NCBI GenBank assembly: GCA_963764225.1
Contig: CAVXRL010000008.1
Span: 126,362 to 190,361, forward strand
Direction of reading: 5' to 3'
Length of the DNA stretch: 64,000 bases
Source of the DNA: an uncultured Actinomycetes bacterium
GTDB lineage: Bacteria > Actinomycetota > Thermoleophilia > UBA2241
Position 1 is the stretch's first letter; each line of letters begins with the position of its first letter. The notes beneath the pieces are model-generated. The model searched no databases. It saw only the letters and a program-made list of their open reading frames with translations, and was not told the DNA's origin. Shown here piece by piece: positions 4,196-62,137 of this stretch. The position numbers and the translations under genes were made by a program.

Positions 4196-4231
4196 CGCGG
4201 GCCGTCCCGGAGGCCGCAGGAGGGCGATGCC

Positions 4232-5792
4232 GTGAGGGACGATCTGTATCTGGGCCTCGACGTCGGCTCGTCGAGCACGAAAGCCGTGCTCGTCGGGGCA
4301 GACGGGGTCGTGGTCGCCGACGCGCGCATCGAGCACGGCATCTCGCGCCCGCAGCCGGGCTGGGCCGAGCAGGACGCCGAACGTGACTGGTGGGGCGGCG
4401 TGGTCGAGGTGTGCCGCCGCGTGCTCCCGGGCAGCGCCGCGCGCGTGCGCGCCGTGGGCGTGAGCGCCCTCGGCCCCTGCGTCCTCCCGGTCGCCGGGGA
4501 CGGGCGCGCGTTGCGGCCCGCCATCCTCTACGGGATCGACACGAGGGCGGTCGCGCAGATGGAGCGGCTGACCGCCGAACTGGGCGCGGAAGAGATCCTC
4601 GCCCGCTGCGGGTCGCGGCTCTCGAGCCAGTCGGCGGGACCGAAGATCCGCTGGCTCGTCGACGAGGAGCCGGGCGTGTGGTCCGCGACCCGGCGTGTCT
4701 TCGGCGCGAGCTCCTACCTGGTCTCGCGCCTCACCGGCGAGTACGTCCTCGACCACCACAGCGCCAGCCACTGGGCGCCGCTCTACGACGTCCACACCAA
4801 CGCCTGGATCGAGGAGTGGGTGGAGGCGGTCGCCCCGGGGCTGCTGTTGCCGCGGCTGGTCTGGCCCCAGGAGGAGTGCGGGGCCGTGAGCCGTGAGGCC
4901 GCGGCGGCGACCGGCCTGCCGCGGGGCGTTCCCGGTCGTCGCCGGCAGCATCGACTCCTGGTGTGAGGTGGCAGCCGCCGGCTTGCGCGGCCCGGGCGAG
5001 GGGCTCCTCGTCTACGGCACGAGCATGTTCCTCGTCGAGGTGCACAGCCCGGCGCGGCCCGATCCGCGGCTGTGGAGCACCGTGGGCTTCGCACCGGGCG
5101 CGCTGAACATCGCCGCCGGGGTGGCCTCGGCCGGGGCGCTCACCTCCTGGCTCCAGGACCTCACCGGTGAGGTCCCGTACGAGATCCTGTACGAGGAGGC
5201 CGCCGCGGCGGGGACCGGCGCCGGCGGCCTCCTCGCGCTGCCGTACTTCGCCGGCGAGCGCACGCCGCTGTTCGACCCGGACCTTCGCGGCGCGCTGCTG
5301 GGGCTGACCGCGGCGCACGGCCGGGGGCACCTCTTCCGGGCGCTCATGGAGGCCGCCGCCTTCGCCGTGCGCCACAACCTCGAGACGATGCGCGAGGCGG
5401 GGGCGACCATCGCCGGCCTGCGCAGCAGCGGCGGCGGGGTGGCCGGCGCGCTCTGGCCGCAGATCGTGAGCGACGTCACCGGGCTGGGGCAGGACGTGCG
5501 CAGGGGGCCGTCCCGCGCGGGCGTCGGCGCCGCTCTCTTCGCGGCGGTGGCCTCCGGCGCGGCGTCGCTGCAGACGCGCTGGCCGCAGCCGACGGAGCGC
5601 GTGGAGCCCGACCCGGAGGCGGCGCTCCTGTACGACGAGCTCTACGGGCGCTTCAGCGAGCTGGCGAGCGCCACCCGCCCGCTCGCCCACGCGCTCGCGG
5701 TCTGGCAGCGGGCCCTCGCGCATGACACGATGACGCCGGTGGAGAGGGACGGGGGCGACCACCCCGCAGAAGGACGAAAGGGGACGACATGA
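4232..5792 (+). CDS. FGGY-family carbohydrate kinase (xylulokinase-like), with an apparent frameshift near ~4930.
   Basis: LYLGLDVGSSSTKAVLV…GWAEQDAERDWW is in ORF 4232..4966. The kinase continues in ORF 4893..5792 (…GSIDSWCEV…YGTSMFLVEV…LPYFAGERTPLFDPDLRGALLGLT…). Confidence 0.7.
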
Positions 5793-12821: not shown

Positions 12822-14126
<1,305 letters not shown>

Positions 14127-14217
14127 GGTACAGCAGAGGGGAGGCAGGCTCCGAACGACGGTCGCGGCGGCTCGGGCGGTCGGGATCGAGTCGTGCGTCA
14201 CGACCGCCCGGCGTCGC

Positions 14218-15654
14218 TCAGGATTCGCAGGCTGCTGCCGCAGGGCCCTTCTCGAAGCGCATCTTGCACATCGCGTACTCCTCCGGCACGGCGATGGGGT
14301 AGTCGCCGTCGAAGCAGGCGCGGCAGAACTGGCTGCGCGGCAGGCCGGTGCTGGCCTGCAGGCCGTCGAGCGTGAGGTAGTGCAGGCTGGTGGCGCCGAC
14401 GTGGTCGCGGATCTCGTCCACCGACTTGTTGGCCGCGATGAGTTCCGTGCGCGTGGCCATGTCGATGCCGTAGAAGCACGGCCACTGGATCGGCGGCGAG
14501 CTGATGCGCAGGTGCACCTCGGCGGCGCCGGCGTCGAACAGCATCTGCACCAGCCGGCGCGTGGTGTTGCCGCGGACGATGGAGTCGTCCACCACGACGA
14601 GCCGCTTGCCCTTGATCACCGAGGTCAGCGGGTTGAGCTTCATGCGGATGCCCACCTGGCGCAGCTGGTCGTCGGGCTGGATGAAGGTGCGGTGCACGTA
14701 GCGGTTCTTGATGAGGCCCTCGGTGTAGGGGATGCCGGAGGCGGCGGCGTAGCCGATCGCGGCCGGCATGCCCGTGTCCGGCACGGGGACCACGAGGTCG
14801 GCCTCGACCGGCGCCTCCAGGGAGAGGTGCTTGCCCATCTCCTGGCGCACCACGTGGAGCGTCTTGCCGTTCATCACGCTGTCGGGCCGGGCGAAGTAGA
14901 TGAACTCGAAGATGCAGAGCGCCGGGCGCGCGCCCTCGAGCTCGACGCGCTCGCTGCGCAGGCCGTGCTCGCTGTCGGCGATGACGATCTCGCCCGGCTG
15001 GATCTCGCGCACGAAGTCGGCGCCGATGATGTCGAGCCCGGAGGTCTCGCTGCTGAACACCGGATGTCCCTCGTAGTCGCCGAGGCAGAGCGGGCGCACG
15101 CCGTAGGGATCGCGGAAGCCGACCACGGCGTCGCCGCTCATCACCGCGGCGGAGAAGGCGCCACGGATCTTGCTGACGGCGGTGCGCACGCCCTCGAGCA
15201 GGTCGCCCTCGGCCTCGTGCGCGATGAGCGCCGTGATGACCTCGGTGTCGGTGGTGCCCGAGAACTTGACGCCTTGGGCGACGAGCTCGTCGCGCAGCTC
15301 CGTGGTGTTGACGAGGTTGCCGTTGTGCCCCAGCGCGATGACGTCGCCGTTGCGGCTGCGCACCAGCGGCTGCGAGTTCGACCAGTGGCTCGACCCCGTC
15401 GTGCTGTAGCGCACGTGGCCGATGGCGTGCTGGCCGCTGAGGCTCTGGAGCATCTGCTCGTTGAACACCTGGCTGACCAGGCCGAGGTCCTTGATGACCG
15501 TGACCTGGCCGTCGTCGGCCACCGCGATGCCGGCGCTCTCCTGCCCGCGGTGCTGCAGGGCGTACAGCCCGAAGAACGTGAGGCGCGCGACGTCGTGCCC
15601 CGGCGCGTGGATGCCGAAGACGCCACAGCTGTCGTGGAGACGATCGTCGTACAC
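14218..15654 (-). CDS. purF: Amidophosphoribosyltransferase.
   Basis: The N-terminal Ntn motif is MYDDRLHDSCGVFGI, followed by …GHVRYSTTGSS… and a PRTase motif (VVVDDSIVRGNTTR). Confidence 0.95.
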   Translation of the reverse strand: MYDDRLHDSCGVFGIHAPGHDVARLTFFGLYALQHRGQESAGIAVADDGQVTVIKDLGLVSQVFNEQMLQSLSGQHAIGHVRYSTTGSSHWSNSQPLVRSRNGDVIALGHNGNLVNTTELRDELVAQGVKFSGTTDTEVITALIAHEAEGDLLEGVRTAVSKIRGAFSAAVMSGDAVVGFRDPYGVRPLCLGDYEGHPVFSSETSGLDIIGADFVREIQPGEIVIADSEHGLRSERVELEGARPALCIFEFIYFARPDSVMNGKTLHVVRQEMGKHLSLEAPVEADLVVPVPDTGMPAAIGYAAASGIPYTEGLIKNRYVHRTFIQPDDQLRQVGIRMKLNPLTSVIKGKRLVVVDDSIVRGNTTRRLVQMLFDAGAAEVHLRISSPPIQWPCFYGIDMATRTELIAANKSVDEIRDHVGATSLHYLTLDGLQASTGLPRSQFCRACFDGDYPIAVPEEYAMCKMRFEKGPAAAACES

Positions 15655-15715: not shown

Positions 15716-17979
15716 TCACCGGGACGGCGAAGAGCTCCTTGCCATCCATGGTACACCGCAGGTGGGTCCCGGCAACCCGGCCCGCCGTCGTGGTGCGGCA
15801 GGTCGCCGAGGATGGCCTCCGAGCTCGGCGACCTTGTCCGGCGCGCAGCTGACGACCACGCGGGTCGGCGCCTCGCCGAACAGCGCGAGGTCGGCGCGGC
15901 CGGCGGCGCCGGTGACGGCCGCGGCGGAGCCGAGGTCGACCTCGGCGCCGAGCCAGCGGCCGCGGCCGGCGCGCGCCACCGGGTCGACGGTCTGCGCGCC
16001 GCCGTTGCTGCCGCTGAACACGCAGCACTCGGCCAGCGCCACGGCGAGTCCGCCCTCGGAGCAGTCGTGGGCGCTCTTGAGCAGGCGCGCCTCGATGGCC
16101 GCGCGGAGCTTCTTCTGCAGCTCGACCTCGAGCTGCAGGTCGACGTCGGGGATGCGGCCCTCGACCCTGCCGTAGGCGACCTTCTGGTACTCGCTGCCGT
16201 CCATCCAGGCGGCGGTGTCGCCGAGGAAGAGGATGACGTCGCCCTCGTCCTTGAACGCGCCGTCGATGTGCACGCTCACGTCGTCGAAGATGCCGAGCAT
16301 GCCGACCATCGGCGTCGGGTAGATCGCCTGGCCGAAGCTCTCGTTGTAGAAGCTCACGTTGCCGCTGACGACCGGCGTGTCGAGCGCCTCGCAGGCCTCG
16401 GCCATGCCCTCGATGGCCTGCTCGAACTGCCAGTAGATCTCGCCCTTCTCCGGATTGCCGAAGTTGAGGCAGTCGGTGACGGCCACGGGCAGCGCGCCGG
16501 TGCAGGCGAGGTTGCGCGCCGCCTCGGCGGTCGCGGCCTTGGCGCCGCGGTACGGGTCGAGGTAGCAGTGGCGGCCGTTGCAGTCGTTGCTGAAGGCGAA
16601 GCCGCGGTCGGTGCCCTTGATGCGCAGCACCGCGGCGTCGGAGCCGGGGATCTGCACCGTGTTGGCCTGGACGATGTAGTCGTACTGCTCCCAGGCCCAG
16701 CGCTTGGAGGCGATGTTGGGCGCGGCCATGAGCTGCGTGAGCGCCGCGCCCAGGTCCTCGGCGGGCGGATACGCCGCGTCGTCCACGGTCACGGGCTCGT
16801 CGACGATGTAGTCGGGCTTCACGGAGGGCGTGCGGATGACGGGGCTCTCGTCGGCGAGGCGGCGGGCGGGGATGTCGGCCACGCGCTCGCCGTGCCACCA
16901 GATGCGCAGCATCTTGCTGTCGGTGACCTCGCCGATGACGGTGCAGTCGAGGTCCCAGCGCTCGCAGACCTCGCGCACGTCGGCGATCTGCTCGTCGGTG
17001 ACGATCGCCAGCATGCGCTCCTGGCTCTCGCTGATCATGATCTCCCACGGCTCCATGTCGGCCTCGCGCAGCGGCACGCGGTCGGCGTGGATGTCGAGGC
17101 CCACGTGGCCCTTGCTCGACATCTCCGAGCTGGAGCTGGTGAGGCCGGCGGCGCCGAGGTCCTGCATGCTCACCACGAGCTTGCGGTGGATGAGCTCGAG
17201 GCACGCCTCGATGAGCTTCTTCTCGGTGAAGGGGTCGCCGACCTGGACGCTCGGGCGCTTCTCCTCGAGCGTCTCGTCGAACTCCTGGCTGGCGAGCACG
17301 CTGGCGCCGCCGATGCCGTCGCGGCCGGTCTTGGAGCCGATGAGCACCACGTGGTTGCCGACGCCGCTGGCGATGGCGCGCACGATGCCGTCGGTGCGGA
17401 TGAGGCCGGCGCTGAACGCGTTGACCAGGCAGTTGCCCTCGTAGCTGGGCTCGAAGTAGATCTCGCCGCCCACGGTGGGGATGCCGAGGCAGTTGCCGTA
17501 GTGGGCGATGCCGCCGACGACGCCGTCGAGCAGGAAGCGCTGGCGCGGCTCGGTGAGCTCGCCGAAGCGCAGGGAGTCCATGCTCACGCACGGGCGCGCG
17601 CCCATGGTGAAGATGTCGCGCACGATGCCGCCGACGCCGGTGGCCGCGCCCTGGAAGGGCTCGACGGCCGACGGGTGGTTGTGGCTCTCGACCTTCATCG
17701 CCACGGCCCAGCCGTCGCCGACGTCGATGATGCCGGCGTTCTCGCCGGGGCCCTGCAGGATGCGCGGCCCGGACGTGGGGAACCGCCCGAGCACGGGCCG
17801 CGAGTGCTTGTAGCTGCAGTGCTCGCTCCACATGAGCGAGTAGATGGCGAGCTCGACGTACGTGGGCTCGCGGTCCTGGATGCGCTTGATGTGCTCGTAC
17901 TCGTCCTCGGTGAGGCCGAGCTTGATCGCCGCGGCGAGGTCGGCCGTGCGGTTCACGTACTGGTGCTTGCCGTCGGGGC

Positions 17980-27989: not shown

Positions 27990-28435
27990 CCAGCGTCCCC
28001 TTCATCCTCCGGGACCACCGCGAGGAGCTCTGGCGGCGGTGGGCCGGCAGCATGGGCGACGAGGTCGCGGCCGACTACCGGGAGATCATGGCGAGCCCGC
28101 TGGGGGAGCGGTACGTGCGCGCCTTCATCGACGACCTCATCGCCTGGAGCGAGGCCGAGGAGTACGAGGCGCCCAGGGTGCTCCGCCAGGCCTGCGAGCG
28201 CGTGGCGGCCGACGCCGCCAACCGCCTCGCCCTGGGCTTCACGGCGCTCGACATCGCGACCGCCCTGCAGGCGCTCCACGGCGCCGTGGTGGACGTGCTG
28301 ATCGACGCGCTCGTGCTCGGCGAGCTGCCCTCGTTCGCCGACACGCTCGAGCAGATCAAGGCCTGCGCCCGCTTCATCGACCGCCTCGTGGTCGCCGTGC
28401 TGGCGGCCCCGCCGGCGTCCGGCGAGCAGTACTGA
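27986..28435 (+). CDS. Hypothetical protein, possibly an RsbRD-N-like sensory domain.
   Basis: GTG start overlapping the upstream stop (GTGA). A 149-aa alpha-helical protein with no catalytic motifs. The assignment is tentative. Confidence 0.35.
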   Translation: MTSVPFILRDHREELWRRWAGSMGDEVAADYREIMASPLGERYVRAFIDDLIAWSEAEEYEAPRVLRQACERVAADAANRLALGFTALDIATALQALHGAVVDVLIDALVLGELPSFADTLEQIKACARFIDRLVVAVLAAPPASGEQY

Positions 28436-28490
28436 GCGCCGGCCGGGGACGGGGTTGCGCCCGTCCGGGGCCGGCAGTAGGGTCGCTGGC

Positions 28491-29561
28491 ATGCTGAGGC
28501 TGGCACTCATCTTCGGTGGGCGCTCCGCGGAGCACGACATCTCCCTCGCCTCGGCCCGCTTCGTCTCCTCCATGCTGGACCGGGACGAGTACGACGTCAT
28601 CCCGGTCGGCATCACGCCGGCAGGCCGCTGGGTCGTGCCGGCGGACTTCGACGCCGCGACCGCCGAGGGACTGGACGCCGTGGCTTGCCGGGCCGCGCAC
28701 CTGGTCGCCGACCCCACGCGGCCCGGCCTCGAGCTCGACGACGGCTCCTTCCACCCGCTCGACTTCGCCTTCCCCATCATGCACGGCACGTTCGCCGAGG
28801 ACGGCACCATCCAGGGGCTCCTGGAGATGGCCGGCGTCGCCTACGCGGGGTCGGGCGTGCTGGGCAGTTCGGTCGGCATGGACAAGGAGCTCATGAAGGC
28901 CGTGTTCGCCACTGCCGGCCTGCCGCAGATGGACTACCTGGCGCTGCGCGACGGCGAGGCCACGGGCCCGCGCGCCGTCGCCGCCGTCGAGGAGCGCCTC
29001 GACTACCCGGTGTTCGTCAAGCCCGCCAACCTGGGCTCGAGCGTGGGCATGACCAAGGCTCACGACCGCGCGGAGCTGGTGGAGGCCTTCGCGCTCGCCT
29101 CGACCTACGACCGCAAGACGATCGTCGAGGCGACCTGTGACGGCCGGGAGCTCGAGTGCAGCCTGCTCGGCAACGCCGACGTGCGCGCGTCGGTCCCCGG
29201 CGAGGTCATCCCGGCCAACGAGTTCTACGACTACGAGGCCAAGTACACCGAGGGCATGATGGCGTTCAAGATCCCGGCCGACGTGCGCGAGGAGCACCTG
29301 CGCACGGTGCAGGAACTGGCCGTGGCGGCCTTCAAGGCCATCGACGCCAGCGGGTTCTCGCGCTGTGACTTCTTCCTCGAGACGGCCACCGACCGGGTGA
29401 TCCTCAACGAGATCAACACCATCCCGGGCATGACCGCGATGAGCGGGTTCCCCCGCCTGTGGGCGGCGTCCGGGGTGGACGGCAAGGCGCTCATCGAGGA
29501 GATCGTGCAGCTGGGGCTCGAGCGCCACGAGCGTCTCGCCCGCCTCAAGATGGCGCGCTGA
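28491..29561 (+). CDS. ddl: D-alanine--D-alanine ligase.
   Basis: MLRLALIFGGRSAEHDISLASA…IMHGTFAEDGTIQGLLEMAGVAYAGSGVL…VFVKPANLGSSVGM…EINTIPGMT. Confidence 0.9.
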   Translation: MLRLALIFGGRSAEHDISLASARFVSSMLDRDEYDVIPVGITPAGRWVVPADFDAATAEGLDAVACRAAHLVADPTRPGLELDDGSFHPLDFAFPIMHGTFAEDGTIQGLLEMAGVAYAGSGVLGSSVGMDKELMKAVFATAGLPQMDYLALRDGEATGPRAVAAVEERLDYPVFVKPANLGSSVGMTKAHDRAELVEAFALASTYDRKTIVEATCDGRELECSLLGNADVRASVPGEVIPANEFYDYEAKYTEGMMAFKIPADVREEHLRTVQELAVAAFKAIDASGFSRCDFFLETATDRVILNEINTIPGMTAMSGFPRLWAASGVDGKALIEEIVQLGLERHERLARLKMAR

Positions 29562-35169: not shown

Positions 35170-35703
35170 CACCAGCCGGCCGGCCGCTTCTGGCAGGCCC
35201 GCCACGTGCCGCCCTACGCGATCGCCATGGCGGCCGTCATCCCCGCCGTCATCATCATCTTCTCGCTGGTCTCGACCGACGCCGTCATCAAGCTGATCAG
35301 CGCCGCGGCCTTCAGCATCTACCTGGGCTTCCAGATGGTCGTCCTGGCCGCGCTGCGCGCCCGCCTCAAGGGCTGGAAGCCCACAGGGGCGTACAAGATG
35401 GGCGCGTGGGCGATGCCCGTCAACATCATCGCCCTGACTTACGGCATCCTGGCGATGATCAACATGTGCTGGCCGCGCACGCCCGATGTCGGCTGGTTCG
35501 ACAACTACATCGTCCTGGTCATGACCTCGATCATCGTCCTGATAGGCCTCGTCTACATGGTCCTCGCGCGGCCTTACGCGCGCGGCGACCAGCCGTGGGG
35601 CGATGCGATTCCGGAAGCCAGATCGAGGAGCCTGAGATCGGCTGAGCCGGCTCTAGGAGAGGCCGCTGCCGCGAGTGAGTTGGCCGGCCCGATCCAGAGC
35701 TGA
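35170..35703 (+). pseudogene. C-terminal fragment (~4 TM helices) of an APC-superfamily amino-acid permease lacking the N-terminal ~300 aa.
   Basis: …AIAMAAVIPAVIIIFSLVSTDAVIKLISAAAFSIYLGFQMVVLAALRARLKGWKP…WFDNYIVLVMTSIIVLIGLVYMVLARP is a typical APC C-terminus. The upstream sequence in this frame has no N-terminal permease segments. Confidence 0.5.
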
Positions 35704-38814: not shown

Positions 38815-38957
38815 CAGTCCCGCGGCCGGCGGCCGCCCCACACGAAGAACAGGGGCAGGAGAAGGAGGGTGAAGCCGAAGAAGCGGCGCGAGACGGCGTA
38901 GACCAGCGCCGCGACGAGCACGGCGACGAGCAGGCTGATCCAGAACCTGGAAGACAT
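38814..38957 (-). CDS. Small (47 aa) two-helix membrane protein, translationally coupled (ATGA) to the downstream gene.
   Basis: MSSRFWISLLVAVLVAALVYAVSRRFFGFTLLLLPLFFVWGG…. Confidence 0.35.
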   Translation of the reverse strand: MSSRFWISLLVAVLVAALVYAVSRRFFGFTLLLLPLFFVWGGRRPRD

Positions 38958-39078
38958 GGGTGTAGCCTGCCGCTCGACCCGAGGGCGCGCAAGCCGCCGC
39001 CGTCACGGTGGCGCGTCCCCGGGCTGCTGTGATTACGTAACACGGCCCGAGAACACCCGCAGCCTGAGGAGGCAGTGC

Positions 39079-40551
39079 GTGAAGCGCAACCTGTTCGCCG
39101 GTCGTCGCCGTAGCGGTGGCCTCAAGTTAGACGTCTTCACCGAGGACGAGATCCAGGACATCCACCTCGCCACCCTCGAGGTCCTCGAGCGCACCGGCGT
39201 CTGGGTGGAGCTCGACGAGGCGCTCGACATCTACAGCGACGGTGGCTGCGTCGTGGACCGGGAGACGCACATCGTGCGCATCCCGCCTCACGTGGTCGAG
39301 GACGCCGTCGCCAGCGCGCCGCCCAAGGTGGTGCTGTGCGGCCGCGACCCCAGGAACGACATCTGCCTCGAGCCGGGACGCGTGGGCTTCAGTAACTTCG
39401 GCGAGGGCATCAAGGTCATCGACCCGACCGACGGCCAGCTCCGGCCCTCCACCAAGGAGGACCTCGGCAACATCGCCCGGCTCGTCGACGCGCTGCCGGA
39501 GGTGGACGTCTTCGAGATGGCCGTCGTCAGCAGCGACAAGCCGCCGGAGTCGTTCAGCCTGCACAACCACGAGGCGGCGATCGTCAACCAGACCAAGCCG
39601 ATCTCCGGCGGAGCGCAGGACGGCGACGCCGTCCACCGCACGGTGGACATGCTCGCCGCCGTCCAAGGGGGCAAGGACGAGGTCAGGCGTCGACCGATGA
39701 TGGTCATGGGTACCTGCCCCGTCAGCCCGCTCAAGCTGGTCAAGGACTTCTGCGAGATCGTGATCGAGTCGGCGCGCGTGGGGCTGCCGAGCTGCGTGCT
39801 CAGCATGGCGATGGCCGGCGGCTCCAGCCCCGTCACGCTCGCCGGCACGCTGGTCACCCACAACGCCGAGGTGCTCGCCGGCATCGTGCTCGGCCAGCTG
39901 ACGGAGCGCGGCAGCAAGCAGCTCTACGGCTCGTCGACCACCGCCATGGACCTGCGGCTGGTGGCGGCGTCGGTGGGCACGCCGGAGTGCGCGCTCATCA
40001 GCGCCGGCGCGGCGCAGCTCGCCAGGCAGTACCGCCTGCCGAGCTACATCGCCGGTGCGTAGGCAGACTCCAAGCTCGGTGACGTGCAGACCGGTCACGA
40101 GAAGACCCTCACGGCCCTCATGGCAGCGTTGGCAGGGACCAACCTGATCTACGGCCTGGGAATGATCGAGTCGGGCGTCACCTTCGATTACGCGCAGCTC
40201 GTCATCGACAACGAGATGGCGCGGATGATCAAGCACGTCGTGGGCGGCGTGCGCGTGGACGACGAGTCGCTGGCGGTGGACGACATCGCCGCGGTGGGGT
40301 CGTTCGGCGACTTCCTCAGCCTCGACGCGACCATGCGCCACATGCGCGACACCTCACAGCCGGAGCTCATCGACCGCCGCGTCCGGGAGGACTGGGAGCG
40401 GCGCGGGGGCACCGACATGTACGCGCGCGCCATGGAGAAGGCGAAGGGCCTGCTGGCCGATCACCGGCCGGAGCCGCTGCCCGACGACGTGCTCAAGCAG
40501 GTCAGGGACATCGTCGACAAGGCGGACCGGGAGCGCGCGCCCCAGGCGTGA
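39079..40551 (+). CDS. mttB: Trimethylamine:corrinoid methyltransferase MttB, with an in-frame amber codon (TAG at 40060-40062) at the pyrrolysine position. The full-length product requires UAG read-through.
   Basis: AGGAGG-N6-GTG start. …LDVFTEDEIQDIHLATLEVLERTGVW…LSMAMAGGSSPVTLAGTLVTHNAEVLAGIVLGQLT…[48 protein letters not shown]…QLVIDNEM… ORFs 38956..40062 and 40084..40551 are in the same frame. The total is ~490 codons with UAG at codon ~328 (compared with Pyl334 in M. barkeri MttB). Confidence 0.85.
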
Positions 40552-40650: not shown

Positions 40651-41700
40651 TCAGGACTGCGGGAGGCCGGACCCGCGCGCCGGCGCCGAGGGCGGCGTCG
40701 CGGTGCTGCCGTCCCAGGAGTCGCCGGAGTGCAGGTGGACGATGAGTGTGTAGGAGCCGGAGGTCCCCGGCGTGTAGGTGTACGCACCGGGGACCAGGCC
40801 GGGCTGCATGGGGGCTCCGCTGCTCGGGTCCTGCGGCCAGTCCGGGTGCGCGGTCCCGAGTGCGCCCGTGGGGGAGACGTCGACCACGCGCGGCAGCGCC
40901 CCCGCGTGCCGGAGCGCCCACTGATCGACGTAGCCCGAGAGGATGCGCCCGCTGCGGCGCAGGATCTCGTCCTCGAGGTTCGTGAGCAGTTGCTGCCAGG
41001 GGCTGGAAGCCATCGCTCCCGAGAGGACGTAGTCGTGCTTGAGCGCGCGGTGAAGGCGCAAGGTATAGGAGGAGCGGTCCGGAGAGACGCTGTACGAGAA
41101 CGAGCCCTTGCTCTGCCCCTGCCGCATCACGTAGTGGTCCCACGGGTCGCTGGGCCAGTACCGGCGGCGCGGCTCGAGGCCCACCGGCCCGTCGGCGCGC
41201 ACGTCGGCGGGCAGCGGGTAGAGGCCGTGGTGCGCCCGCGCGTACTCCTCGATGTACTCACGGATGAGGTTGGCGCCCTCCTCACCGCGGTGGTCGTAGG
41301 CGAGCATGACGATGCGCGGCATGCCTCCCGAGACGACGTACGTGCGGCCGCCGTCGAGGTACCCGACGAGGCGGTAGCGGCGCCGGTCGGGCGCGACCGT
41401 GTAGCGGTAGTGCCCGCGGGTGGTGCCCGGGAGCATGGCCGCGCCGGTCCACGGGTCGTCCGGCCACCAGGCGCCCAGACGCCCGGGCTGCACCCTCCGC
41501 GCCCGCGGGTACAGGAAGAAGCGTGTGCCGGCCTGACGGTCGATGAGGCCGCGCAGCGCCATGATGCCGTCGCGCATCTGATCGTCCGGTGAGGTGGCGC
41601 GAGCCGTCGCGCCGGCGCTCGCGCAGAGCAGGACCGCCGCGAGGAGTGCAAGCCCGAGGATGAGGGTGGTGCGCCGGATCATGTGCGTGGTGGTGGCCAT
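40651..41700 (-). CDS. Secreted protein with three tandem ~85-aa pseudopilin-like repeats.
   Basis: Signal peptide MATTTHMIRRTTLILGLALLAAVLLCASAGA. Repeats carry WPDDPW…YRYTVAPD…YRLVGYLDGGRTY, WPSDPW…FSYSVSPD…YTL…, and WPQDP…PM…YTYTPG…YTLIVHLHSGDSW. Confidence 0.55.
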   Translation of the reverse strand: MATTTHMIRRTTLILGLALLAAVLLCASAGATARATSPDDQMRDGIMALRGLIDRQAGTRFFLYPRARRVQPGRLGAWWPDDPWTGAAMLPGTTRGHYRYTVAPDRRRYRLVGYLDGGRTYVVSGGMPRIVMLAYDHRGEEGANLIREYIEEYARAHHGLYPLPADVRADGPVGLEPRRRYWPSDPWDHYVMRQGQSKGSFSYSVSPDRSSYTLRLHRALKHDYVLSGAMASSPWQQLLTNLEDEILRRSGRILSGYVDQWALRHAGALPRVVDVSPTGALGTAHPDWPQDPSSGAPMQPGLVPGAYTYTPGTSGSYTLIVHLHSGDSWDGSTATPPSAPARGSGLPQS

Positions 41701-41836
41701 TCCCTCCGCAGTGTGGCGGCGCGTACCGGTCATTTCAAGCGCGCCGCACGTTCCCGGCCGGCGTCTCCTGCTACCATTCGCCCTGCGCGCCCCGGAGCCT
41801 GCGGAGTCGCGCGAGGATCCGTGGCGATGAGGGGAG

Positions 41837-43228
41837 ATGGCGGTGGAGGCGAAGATCCCGACCCGGATGGGCGACGGCTTCATGGTCGAGATGACGCGCA
41901 GCGAGCTGCGCGCCGATCTGGAGGAGGCGACGCGGGCGGCGGCGAGCAAGGCCAAGGTGCCGCCGCTCACGCAAGACGAGCTCGACCACCTGCTGGACAT
42001 CTACGCCTCGCGCGCGGCGTTCACCGCAGTCGACATCGGCGACCAGGTGGTGCTCAGCTGCGACGGCGGCGGCAGCAAGATGACCGGGACCGACCTCCTC
42101 GACCTGCTGGAGAGCGAGCAGCGCCTCGGCCAGGACATCCTCGAGCTCTGGCACATCGAGTACAGCTACAAGGCGATCAAGACGATCCTGCCGTTCCAGC
42201 AGCAGGTGATGCAGAACGTGCAGCTGATGTGCACGGCGCCGGTGCAGTACGGGGCGCAGCCCAACCTGGCCTTCTACAGCAAGCCCGACGGCCCCGCGGA
42301 GAACTGGTTCGAGCTGCTGCCGCGCGGGGACATCGCCGGCGCCCGCGCGGCCATCGGCGAGGCCATGGACCACGCCACCAAGGACTTCATCTACGTGGGC
42401 GAGGGCATGCTGGACGCCGGCGCCGACGGCATGGACTTCGACACCACCGGCGGCGCCGGCGACGCCGACTTCTTCAGTACGCTGCGCGCGGTCCGCCACC
42501 TGCGCGAGAAGTACCCGCACGCCGGCATCGAGGTCGGCATGGCCGGCGAGTTCGTCATCGGCGTCCACGGCGAGCTGGAGTGGGAGGGCCGCCGGCTCGC
42601 CGGGCTCTGGCCCAGGGAGCAGCTCGAGGTGTGCCAGGACGCCGGCGCCACGATCTTCGGGCCGGCGGTCAACATCCGCACCGGCAAGAGCTGCGCCTGG
42701 AACGCGGCGTACTCCATCACCGTCACCAAGCCGTGCATGGACGCGGCCCGCATCCCGGTGCACCCCAACGTCGGCGAGGGCGTCGGCGGCGTGCCGGTGA
42801 ACGGCTACCCGCCCGAGGACGCCGCTTCCCGGGCGGCCAGGGCGCACGTCGACATCCTCAAGTGCGACGGGTTGTAGGTGGGCTCGGGTGACTCCAGAGG
42901 CATGGACGTCACCCACGCGCTCGCCGCTGGCATGGGCGGGATGCGCACGGCCGGAGACCTGGTCGCGCGCATGCAGATGTCACGCGGGATGCGCCTCCCC
43001 GAGGCCAAGAAGTACGTCGCGGAGAAGCTGGGCTGCACGGTCAGGGACCTGAGCGACAGCTACGCGATGGAGCAGATCCGCGGCGAGAAGGGTCTGGGAA
43101 GGATCCTCGACCACTCCAACCTGCACCCCGGGGAGCCGAACGCGATGACGGCGAAGTTCCGGATCGCCGAGCTGCTGGACGTGCCGGTCAGCTCGGTGGA
43201 GCGTTTTCGGGAGCTGGCGGGTCTGTGA
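41837..43228 (+). CDS. mtbB: Dimethylamine:corrinoid methyltransferase MtbB, with an in-frame amber codon (TAG at 42875-42877) at the pyrrolysine position.
   Basis: MAVEAKIPTRMGDGFMVEMTRSEL…DFDTTGGAGDADFFSTLRAV…AGIEVGMAGEF…[65 protein letters not shown]… ORFs 41837..42877 and 42878..43228 share a frame. The total is 463 codons with UAG at codon 347 (compared with Pyl356 in M. barkeri MtbB). Confidence 0.85.
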
Positions 43229-57622: not shown

Positions 57623-57976
57623 TTAGTAGCGTTGAGCGATGGCCGCCACCTGGAGCCGCGCGCCGCCGAGCAGCCACGCGGCGCCCGCCAGCGTGACGGC
57701 GGGGTACGGCGCGCTGAACCGGGCCTCGACCTCGGCGTCGACCGAGGCGCGGTCGGCCCGGTCGACGAGGTGGATCTCGAGGCTGACCACGTCGTCCAGC
57801 GAGAGGCCGGTGGAGCGGAGCTGGTGGGCGAGGTTGTCCAGGGCGCGGGCTGCCTGCTCGGCGGCCGTGCTCCCGCTGAGCTCGCCGTGCACGTCGAGAG
57901 GAAGCTGCGCCGAGACGAACACGAAGTGGCTTGACGAGATAGCGGCCGATGCCGCGCCGAAGGGCGCCGGAGCCAT
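57623..57976 (-). CDS. Divergent second RidA-family paralog.
   Basis: MAPAPFGAASAAISSSHFVFVSAQLPLD…VVSLEIHLVDRADRASVDAEVEARFSAPYPAVTLAGAAWL…. Confidence 0.55.
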   Translation of the reverse strand: MAPAPFGAASAAISSSHFVFVSAQLPLDVHGELSGSTAAEQAARALDNLAHQLRSTGLSLDDVVSLEIHLVDRADRASVDAEVEARFSAPYPAVTLAGAAWLLGGARLQVAAIAQRY

Positions 57977-58054
57977 CGTCGATCTGACGGGTGACCTGCT
58001 CATGCAGGAGAGTGTTCCCCGCGTAGCCCCTGCGTGCACGGGCGCGGGGCGCCC

Positions 58055-58504
58055 TCAGAGGGCGAGGATCTTGGCCGCCAGGATCGCCGCGTTGCGGGAG
58101 CCGTTGATCGCGACGCACGCGACCGGTACGCCCGGAGGCATCTGCACGATGCTGAGCAGCGAGTCCAGGCCGCCGAGGTCGCTGGTCTTGATCGGCACGC
58201 CGATCACGGGCAGGTTGGTGTAGGCGGCCAGCACACCGGGGAGGGCCGCCGCCTTGCCGGCGCCGGCGATGAGTACCTTGAGCCCACGGCTCTGCGCCGT
58301 CCTGGCGTAGTGAGCCACCTTGTCGGGGTCCCGGTGCGCGGAGAGCACGTTGATCTCACATTTGATCCTGCGCTCCTTGAGTTCTTCCGCCGCCTTCTCC
58401 ATGACCTCGCGGTCGCTCTCGCTGCCCATCACGATACCGATGAGGACGGGGTCCATCTCGATACCCTTGAGGATGCTTTCCACCTCGGTGCTGGTCTCTT
58501 CCAT
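58055..58504 (-). CDS. purE: N5-carboxyaminoimidazole ribonucleotide mutase.
   Basis: …VLIGIVMGSESDREVMEKAAEEL…AGAGKAAALPGVLAAYTNLPVIGVPI…. Confidence 0.9.
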   Translation of the reverse strand: MEETSTEVESILKGIEMDPVLIGIVMGSESDREVMEKAAEELKERRIKCEINVLSAHRDPDKVAHYARTAQSRGLKVLIAGAGKAAALPGVLAAYTNLPVIGVPIKTSDLGGLDSLLSIVQMPPGVPVACVAINGSRNAAILAAKILAL

Positions 58505-60176: not shown

Positions 60177-60953
60177 TCAGATCGACTTCTGGTACACGCG
60201 GAACGCTCGCGTGGCCAGCCACGTGCACACGACGGTGAACAGCGCGAGCCAGCCCATGCGCATGAAGACGACCGCCCAGTCCGGGTTCGCGGTCAGGCCT
60301 TCGCGCCCGGCCTGGACCGCCCAGTTCACGGGGTTGTACCTCGCGACGGTCTGCATCCAGCCGGGCATGAGCGTCTGCGCCATGAACACGGAGCTCAGGA
60401 ACACCAGCGGGAGCAGCACGAAGTTGCTGACGGCGATCATCGTCTCCTCCTTGCGCGCGAGGAGCGCGATGGCGTTGCTCAGCGCGCCGATCCCGGTGCC
60501 GAGCAGTACGGCACACACGGTGAGCGCGACCATGCCGGGGAGGCCGCCGGGGTACCGCGCCCCGACGATCAGCCCCAGGACGATGATGATCGCCGACTGG
60601 ATCACGCCGACGACGGCGCCCTGGAGCAGGCGCCCGGAGATGAGCGAACCCCTGCTCGCCGGGCTGACGAGGAACCTGTCCACCACGCCCCGGTTGATGT
60701 CGTCGATCAGGCCCATGCCGCTCCAGCCGGCGCTGAACAGACAGGTCATCACGACGATCCCCGGCGTGAGGAAGTCGATGTAACTCCCGGCGCCGAACCC
60801 GGGGATCTCGACGATCCTGCGGAACAGCGCGCCGTAGAGTAGCAGCCACACCACGGGCTGCACGAGCGAGATGAAGATCCAGACAGGCTGCCGGATGAGG
60901 TTGCGGAAGTGCCGCTGGGTCATGAACCAGGTGTCTGCGAACGCGTTGCTCAT
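60177..60953 (-). CDS. ABC-2 type transporter permease.
   Basis: Six predicted TM helices (…VWIFISLVQPVVWLLLYGALF…). The ATG overlaps the ATPase stop (ATGA). Confidence 0.8.
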   Translation of the reverse strand: MSNAFADTWFMTQRHFRNLIRQPVWIFISLVQPVVWLLLYGALFRRIVEIPGFGAGSYIDFLTPGIVVMTCLFSAGWSGMGLIDDINRGVVDRFLVSPASRGSLISGRLLQGAVVGVIQSAIIIVLGLIVGARYPGGLPGMVALTVCAVLLGTGIGALSNAIALLARKEETMIAVSNFVLLPLVFLSSVFMAQTLMPGWMQTVARYNPVNWAVQAGREGLTANPDWAVVFMRMGWLALFTVVCTWLATRAFRVYQKSI

Positions 60954-61928
60954 GGCTGCTTCTTCTCCTCTTCGTCGGCCTCGCTGAAGGCGCGGCCGGC
61001 GTACCGCAGGTACACGTCGTCGAGCGACGGTCGCGAGACCGTGACCGAGGCGACCTTGACGCCCTCGGCCTCGAGCGCGGCCAGCACGGCCGGCACGGCG
61101 CGCGCGCCGCTGTCGGTGCGCGCGCGCAGTGCGCGCCCGTCCACAGCGACGTCGTAGAGGTGCTCGGCCACCCTGTCGAGGGCGCGGCCGACCTCGCCGT
61201 CGAGCGACTGGTCCTCCAGCTCGACGGCGATGGCGTCGCCGCGCAGCTCGCCCTTGAGCTCGTCGGGCGTTCCCTCGGCCACCACGAGCCCGCGGTCGAC
61301 GATCGCCAGCCTCTGGGCGAGGCCGTCGGCCTCCTCCATGTAGTGCGTCGTCATCAGGATCGTCAGGCCCTCGTCGCCGGCGAGCCGCGCGATCTCGCTC
61401 CACATGTCGGTGCGCGCCTCCGGGTCCAGCCCCGTGGTCGGCTCGTCCAGGAACAGCACCTGCGGCCGGTGCATCAGGCCGACGGCCACGTCGAGCTTGC
61501 GCTGCATGCCGCCCGAGTAGGTGCGCACCGTCCGGTCGGCCGCCTCAGCTCAGGCCGAAGCCGTCGAGCAGTTCCTGCGCCCTCGACTTGAGGGCACCGC
61601 CGCGCATCCCGTACACGCGGCCCTGCAGGATCAGGTTCTCGCGCCCCGTCGCCTGTGGGTCGAGCCCCGACTTCTGCGCCACGCAGCCGATAGCCAAGCG
61701 CACCTTGTCGGGCTGCCGGATCACATCGTAGCCGGCCACGTACGCCTCGCCGGCGTCGGGCCGAGAGAGCGTGGTCAGGATCTTCACCGTGGTCGACTTG
61801 CCGGCCCCGTTGGGGCCGAGCAGACCGAACACCGTGCCCGCAGGCACCGCGAGGCTCACCCCTTTGAGCGCCTGCACGTCGCCGCGGTAGGTCTTCACGA
61901 GACCTCGGGCTTCGATGGCGTTGTCCAT
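60950..61928 (-). CDS. ABC transporter ATP-binding protein, with an apparent frameshift near ~61535.
   Basis: Walker A GLLGPNGAGKSTT is in ORF 61545..61928. ABC signature/Walker B …SGGMQRKLDVAVGLMHRPQVLFLDEPTTGLDP… is in ORF 60950..61528. Confidence 0.85.
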
Positions 61929-62137
61929 GGCGTCCCGTCCTTCCTTCCGCTCGGCGGCCGGTCGACCGACGCGCCATCCGTCCGCAGCGGAAGCCAGTGT
62001 AGCTCGAATTGTTAGATTGTCAAATCTTTAGATTCCGATATACTCTTCCCAACGGAAGACACGGGGCACGCCGACCAGCACCACTGTCCGGCGGCCCACC
62101 TTACGGGAGTGTTCCCCCTTCTTGACTGGAGGTAGAG

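Follow-up and report, generated by a model that had tools for sequence, protein, structure and literature searches.

The trimethylamine and dimethylamine methyltransferases MttB and MtbB are enzymes whose catalytic residue is pyrrolysine (Pyl) (Krzycki 2004, as cited in PMC10805028), and a new gene of this kind can be compared with several described systems. The MttB of the methanogen Methanosarcina barkeri is available as a structure (PDB 7XCL, 7XCM, 7XCN), while Desulfitobacterium hafniense offers both a pyrrolysyl-tRNA synthetase split into PylSn and PylSc (PDB 2ZNI, 3DSQ) and a non-Pyl member of the same fold family (PF06253), MtgB (PDB 2QNE, 9YCE). In a survey of bacterial genomes, genes for the pyrrolysyl-tRNA synthetase (PylRS) were listed in 81 genomes, with "two Actinobacteria" among them (Guo et al. 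2022, PMC9630628), and this survey was restated in a 2025 review (PMC11764691). Moreover, metagenome-assembled genomes (MAGs) of Actinobacteriota from Stordalen Mire were reported to express Pyl-encoding mttB and mtbB (Ellenbogen et al. 2023, PMC10805028). Here, we analyzed a 64-kb stretch of DNA (contig CAVXRL010000008.1; the whole stretch is hereafter called the window), in which an in-frame amber codon had been predicted at the pyrrolysine position of an mttB gene.

The window most probably carries working Pyl-encoding mttB and mtbB genes of an actinobacterium of the class Thermoleophilia, in which UAG would be translated as pyrrolysine. The Stordalen Mire MAGs belong to the same phylum and have the same mttB and mtbB pair, which was recognized there by amber-codon truncation, and the main text of that study describes neither a pyl cluster nor pylT and does not contain the term "pylS". 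As the use of pyrrolysine in this phylum has already been reported, the locus adds a further, well-supported example and is no discovery, and the novelty that the original prediction saw in an actinobacterial host was overstated (PMC9630628, PMC10805028; in addition, NCBI names a PylS in a Thermoleophilia MAG).

Two methyltransferase genes with an in-frame amber codon

The first of the two genes, mttB, comprises the following features:

39066..39072, forward strand: Shine-Dalgarno-like GAGGAGG, 6 nt 5' of the GTG start (direct sequence reading)
39079..40551, forward strand: mttB, predicted trimethylamine:corrinoid methyltransferase, 490 codons including one in-frame UAG (PF06253, TIGR02369, PDB 7xcl)
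40060..40062, forward strand: UAG codon 328 of mttB, predicted to be read as pyrrolysine (alignment to the M. barkeri Pyl, TAG in orthologs, downstream dN/dS, i.e., the ratio of nonsynonymous to synonymous substitution rates)

The open reading frames (ORFs) 38956..40062 and 40084..40551 share one frame that is interrupted by the TAG at 40060-40062 alone, and the read-through product counted from the GTG at 39079, where the orthologs begin at the same V/L-KRN residue, is 490 aa long with the TAG as codon 328; frame, start, length and codon number are all as originally described. This product matched PF06253 over its full length (E = 1.4e-94, 317 bits, cut-off 25) and reached 696 bits against the NCBIfam equivalog TIGR02369 (trimeth_pyl, cut-off 525), with 402 bits (E = 3e-119) against the M. 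barkeri Pyl-MttB (7xcl) vs. 230 bits against the non-Pyl MtgB of D. hafniense (2qne, 9yce). In the end-to-end alignment with the M. barkeri protein (residues 2-484 to 3-490), the TAG falls within a gap-free stretch on the residue written as X (Pyl) in 7xcl and as K in 7xcm, i.e., at the position of Pyl334, and the motif LPSY(V/I)AG(S/A)-Pyl-(S/A)D(A/S)K...GHEKT around it is common to both proteins. The archaeal sequence context given in the original prediction was correct when compared residue by residue with 7xcl, and a sense codon at the Pyl position of MtgB-type proteins, also put forward there, was seen in the MtgB alignment. At the level of these alignments and family scores, the gene is confirmed as a bona fide Pyl-type mttB with an amber codon at the pyrrolysine position.

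The second gene, mtbB, lies 1.3 kb 3' of mttB and was overlooked in the original prediction:

41837..43228, forward strand: mtbB, predicted dimethylamine:corrinoid methyltransferase, 464 codons including one in-frame UAG (PF09505, TIGR02368)
42875..42877, forward strand: UAG codon 347 of mtbB, predicted to be read as pyrrolysine (start of the PYLIS_2 model match, TAG in homologs)

Its product was assigned to PF09505 (E = 3.6e-155, 517.5 bits) and exceeded the cut-off of TIGR02368 (dimeth_PyL; 383.9 bits, cut-off 369.1), and its frame holds exactly one TAG (42875-42877). MtbB is not homologous to MttB, and the pairing of the two genes is kept in about 18 related loci. Since two non-homologous genes for Pyl enzymes stand 1.3 kb apart, each with a single TAG at the expected place, chance or sequencing error is not a credible origin of these codons. 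Between the two genes, a conserved ORF of about 449 aa (40651-42000, reverse strand) had no Pfam or NCBIfam match; a counterpart of 439 aa is found at the same place in a syntenic locus (L001).

The amber codons are conserved throughout the loci that were retrieved: the mttB codon was TAG in 25 of 25 orthologous loci, with an intact frame downstream, and the mtbB codon in 20 of 20 homologous loci, both sets including the Deltaproteobacterium Desulfospira joergensenii. When the window was compared with three relatives, mttB had a dN/dS of 0.16-0.22 before the TAG and of 0.29-0.34 after it, which indicates that the 3' third of the gene is under purifying selection as a protein. A protein database search with the read-through product as query recovered dozens of clusters (90% identity) of MttB homologs that were 66-97% identical and exactly 327 aa long, all ending at one codon because gene callers cut there, while the full-length matches (488-495 aa) were non-Pyl actinobacterial paralogs with 50-59% identity to the window protein. 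Judged from codon conservation and substitution patterns, mttB is not a pseudogene, in support of the original view. The nucleotide identity of mttB to its ortholog in the MAG CAVZIA01 (L008) was 94%, with 71-85% for the flanking genes; such a high value could reflect very strong constraint or an exchange of mttB within the clade.

Pyrrolysine machinery in related Thermoleophilia genomes

The window has a G+C content of 71.3%, and the region around mttB and mtbB shows synteny with loci of MAGs labeled "uncultured Thermoleophilia bacterium" (78-87% nucleotide identity over 10-17 kb), most of them with the MFD isolate-name prefix; the closest one is L054 in the MAG CAVVGY01 (87%). These syntenic relatives support an actinobacterial host of the class Thermoleophilia, in agreement with the actinobacterial host of about 70% GC suggested earlier, and the identities of 78-87% place the window in a different species of the same clade.

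In order to find the pyrrolysine machinery of this clade, PylS sequences of M. mazei and D. hafniense were checked against PDB and made into a profile. Searched with this PylSc profile (D. hafniense and M. mazei), a word-indexed protein database returned only Methanosarcina-like or Desulfitobacterium-like proteins among the best 120 matches. The profile was then run on a library of representatives at 50% identity, from which a high-GC protein (P0261) was chosen by its amino-acid composition and used for a second search, which recovered more than 120 clusters (90% identity) of PylSc proteins with 284-286 aa and 63-78% identity. Two of these clusters, from a Thermoleophilia bacterium and an Actinobacteria bacterium, respectively, carry the NCBI label "pyrrolysine--tRNA(Pyl) ligase large subunit". 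Species-representative genomes were scanned with a chimeric query composed of residues 205-490 of the window MttB and a Thermoleophilia PylSc, which yielded 56 loci, nearly all in Thermoleophilia MAGs, and about 35 species-level MAGs with PylSc in this one genome scan. At least 15 MAGs combine PylSc with a TAG-type mttB, whose identity across the region covered by the query was 83-96%, and in three of them (CAVXJO01, CAWCSR01, and CAVTPJ01) the two genes are on one contig. The search for pylT, pylS and pylBCD proposed with the original prediction was therefore positive in at least 15 related MAGs with the same TAG-containing mttB, and negative within the 64-kb window itself.

The pyl genes form a cluster with the order pylSc, corrinoid protein, radical SAM protein, pylSn, pylT, pylD, pylC, pylB, which is kept in about 20 loci, and the full cluster is present in the two MAGs nearest to the window, CAVZIA01 (mttB locus L008, pyl locus L062) and CAVVGY01 (mttB locus L054, pyl locus L048). 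In the locus L004 (70% GC), the corrinoid protein gene follows pylSc, and pylSn, pylD, pylC, and pylB lie within 9 kb of pylSc. The proteins of this one cluster were scored against NCBIfam:

PylSc of L004: TIGR02367, 316.6 bits, cut-off 178
PylSn of L004: TIGR03912, 126.6 bits, cut-off 51
PylB of L004: TIGR03910, 436.9 bits, cut-off 348
PylC of L004: TIGR03909, 325.7 bits, cut-off 248
PylD of L004: TIGR03911, 199.5 bits, cut-off 150
Corrinoid protein of L004: TIGR02370, 215.3 bits, cut-off 215.3 (exactly at the cut-off)

The tRNA gene pylT was detected solely through the anticodon-loop motif CTCTAAA. In L004 it is 73 nt long (16318-16390, reverse strand), lies just 3' of pylD, and folds into a cloverleaf, and it was also found in 19 other loci. 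Features of the tRNA (Thermoleophilia pylT sequence GGGGGGTCGATCGGAAGGATCAGCGTGGGCTCTAAACCCACGTAGGCGGGTGTGACTCCCGCACTCCCCGCCA) are a CUA anticodon, a single nucleotide separating the acceptor stem from the D stem, D and variable loops of 5 nt and 3 nt, respectively, and a CCA end that is encoded in the gene. The CUA does not vary among the 20 copies, in which two stem pairs show compensatory changes (G6-C64 to C-G, and A29-U37 to G-C). ARAGORN found no tRNA in six related loci, nor did a permissive search of all Rfam families on L004.

These clusters share PylB, PylC, PylD, and the hallmarks of pylT with bacterial Pyl systems, and as in D. hafniense the synthetase is encoded in two parts, a 286-aa PylSc and a 109-aa PylSn. 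In contrast to D. hafniense, the gene order is different, pylSc follows a cell-wall amidase gene, and the methyltransferase genes are unlinked to the cluster; the PylSc proteins of the two groups are also distant, falling into separate clusters at 50% identity. In Desulfospira joergensenii DSM 10085 (L051), where the TAG occupies the same aligned codon in both mttB and mtbB, the methyltransferase genes adjoin the pyl genes, with homologs of pylSc, pylSn, pylB, and the corrinoid protein nearby, and the protein identities are 53-58% for MttB and 46-49% for MtbB. No cognate corrinoid-protein gene adjoins mttB in the window.

Three further observations concern the gene content and distribution of these clusters. 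A radical SAM protein of 286 aa (L004:13556-14416, forward strand) is encoded between the corrinoid-protein gene and pylSn in this and about 20 other pyl clusters, with 80-86% identity, and remained below every NCBIfam cut-off. A gene for Fae, the formaldehyde-activating enzyme (TIGR03126, 155 bits, cut-off 118, for the L004 protein), stands within the pyl cluster in two loci only, L004 (12015-12527, forward strand) and L007. Lastly, a MAG labeled "Deltaproteobacteria bacterium" (JBLMXT01; L023, L039) has mttB, mtbB, and pylSc genes that are 74-96% identical to those of Thermoleophilia, and is probably a mislabeled or contaminated bin.

By analogy with what is known biochemically of standard bacterial Pyl systems, the window genes would be expressed as follows. 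PylB, PylC, and PylD would make pyrrolysine from two lysines, and the split synthetase (PylSc and PylSn) would charge it onto pylT, a dedicated amber suppressor with a CUA anticodon. At the UAG codons, the charged tRNA-Pyl would compete with the release factor, giving full-length MttB (490 aa) and MtbB (464 aa), and these enzymes would move a methyl group from trimethylamine or dimethylamine to the cognate corrinoid protein, the gene of which lies inside the pyl cluster in the relatives. We infer that the same pyl cluster is present in the organism's own genome outside the 64-kb window and, by homology, that pyrrolysine and not another residue would be inserted at UAG. Which substrates are used and where the methyl group goes is likewise presumed: in this 71% GC bacterium, unlike in the methanogen M. 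barkeri, a folate-type carrier would presumably accept the methyl group in place of coenzyme M.

Possible constraint on the sequence after the amber codons

A scan of the whole window against Rfam gave two matches in all, each beginning at one of the two amber codons:

40060..40159, forward strand: 100 nt after the mttB UAG, matching Rfam PYLIS_3 (RF02510, 69.6 bits, gathering score 38)
42875..42974, forward strand: 100 nt after the mtbB UAG, matching Rfam PYLIS_2 (RF02509, 62 bits, gathering score 36)

The predicted folding of the two stretches was dissimilar. For mttB, the 100 nt after the UAG folded no better than shuffled sequences (z = +0.49), while the corresponding stretch of mtbB had a predicted minimum free energy of -56.8 kcal/mol (z = -3.18), and none of 200 shuffles folded as well. 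Over 18 loci the mtbB stretch is nearly invariant, and a double change was seen in 1 of 31 pairs of the PYLIS-like region, which is too little variation for covariation to be informative. Largely, the Rfam matches reflect sequence conservation.

The low variation is itself notable, as seen in synonymous codon diversity, which fell about 3-fold after the mttB UAG; the p-values are indicative only, as the sites are not phylogenetically independent. In mttB, the 45 codons after the UAG had a synonymous diversity of 0.071 vs. 0.241 elsewhere (Mann-Whitney p = 1.5e-8), and the gene-wide minimum starts at codon 323 (window 40045-40200, approximately codons 323-370). The dip in mtbB (42878-42970) is weaker (0.095 vs. 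0.179 over 30 codons, p = 0.007) and is not the minimum of that gene. The pattern in mttB is compatible with a constraint at the RNA or translation level near the UAG, without proving a structure, and its cause could be an RNA element, an effect on translation speed, or recombination.

Alternative explanations and biological meaning

Several observations weigh against a functional pyrrolysine system in this organism. Neither a tRNA (ARAGORN) nor the CTCTAAA anticodon-loop motif was found in the 64-kb window, and family searches with its approximately 55 ORFs gave no match to PylS, PylB, PylC, PylD, or a corrinoid protein, so that the machinery is unproven for the organism's own genome, for which a window of this size is too small to decide the presence of pyl genes. 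The best match to the window in the sequence collection was 96-99.7% at the protein level. Two other genes are apparently frameshifted, which points to some gene decay or assembly error in the window: the N- and C-terminal halves of an FGGY-family carbohydrate kinase lie in two overlapping frames (4196-4966 and 4890-5792, forward strand), the result of either a frameshift or an assembly indel, and the ATPase of an ATP-binding cassette (ABC) transporter is likewise split over two frames (60950-61549 and 61545-62027, reverse strand).

Two candidates for pyl genes in the window were rejected based on NCBIfam, i.e., a Ddl-like ORF (28302-29561) considered for PylC, which is a D-Ala-D-Ala ligase, and a radical SAM ORF (12822-14615) considered for PylB, which is an anaerobic sulfatase maturase. 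Elsewhere in the window, the ORF 35206-35703 (forward strand) encodes just the C-terminal ~150 aa of an amino-acid/APC-type permease and looks like a deletion remnant; the permease gene of the syntenic locus L001 codes for 554 aa and is preceded by genes for a PAS/GerE regulator and a cupin, both missing at this place in the window. The PurE (AIR carboxylase) ORF 58055-58504 (reverse strand) matches profile positions 2-129 of 148 only and may be truncated at its C-terminus; no nucleotide separates the PurE stop from the adjoining RidA-like ORF (57623-58054).

The original prediction had itself named, as its counter-hypothesis, a decaying remnant of horizontally acquired DNA; on this reading the TAG would be a true stop and the 3' part of mttB would be left untranslated. 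The missing pyl genes and the few frameshifted genes in the window would fit such a remnant, and the 94% identity of mttB to L008, compared with flanks at approximately 80%, could hint at a recent transfer, but a remnant does not explain why all 25 orthologs have TAG at the identical codon and keep the frame open behind it, why dN/dS downstream stays at 0.29-0.34, why a second Pyl gene, mtbB, has the same pattern, or why the relatives have a full pyl cluster. This reading is already largely refuted, and we consider it highly improbable. Somewhat more room, although still little, is left for a genome that lost or never had the pyl cluster, so that UAG either terminates translation or is read through at a low level by a near-cognate tRNA inserting a canonical residue. 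In this clade the cluster is unlinked to mttB (at a different place on the same contig, or on a different contig) and its presence is thus unreadable from the window, and TAG is still a normal stop of the lineage (roughly 15% of stops). Against a loss, PylSc was present in every MAG with mttB in which both loci could be sought (at least 15 MAGs), and mttB and mtbB, of which Pyl is the catalytic residue (Krzycki 2004, as cited in PMC10805028), would be useless without the cluster, yet both are intact here.

A genome-wide reassignment of TAG to pyrrolysine in place of local recoding has an archaeal precedent (Kivenson et al. 2025, cited in preprint 10.64898/2026.05.24.727570), but in the window TAG ends four ordinary genes, and in the loci of the lineage it ends ~100 of ~680 rough gene calls, a normal share for a high-GC genome. 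Since TAG is a common stop in the lineage, the two codons are a case of local recoding, and reassignment was ruled out on stop-codon usage, with hardly any probability left to it. Translation of the two UAG codons as pyrrolysine by a machinery encoded elsewhere in the genome is thus our preferred explanation.

The phenomenon itself has been published before and the current understanding is unchanged by this locus, which adds a clean genomic case of pyrrolysine use for Thermoleophilia, a high-GC class common in soils and sediments. What appears under-described is the size of the clade, the gene order of the pyl cluster, the invisibility of pylT to standard tools, and the synonymous constraint after the UAG. 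Because gene callers split mttB and mtbB, and ARAGORN and Rfam miss pylT, the use of pyrrolysine in this clade is easily overlooked. A broader proposal, which we advance tentatively and regard as rather doubtful in its entirety, is that the Thermoleophilia of soils and sediments are a large, essentially uncharacterized Pyl-decoding clade whose pylT escapes standard tRNA finders and whose mttB mRNA contains a selected element of approximately 45 codons, directly behind the UAG, that may promote read-through. Set beside the "two Actinobacteria" of the published survey, the counts obtained here were about 35 species-level MAGs with PylSc and more than 120 PylSc clusters (90% identity). As a speculation, the native 70% GC set of PylSc, PylSn, and tRNA might prove useful as an orthogonal pair in Streptomyces-like hosts. 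In ecological terms, these bacteria can probably demethylate trimethylamine and dimethylamine and would in doing so compete with methylotrophic methanogens; Ellenbogen et al. 2023 (PMC10805028) discuss such competition in general terms for bacterial methylotrophs.

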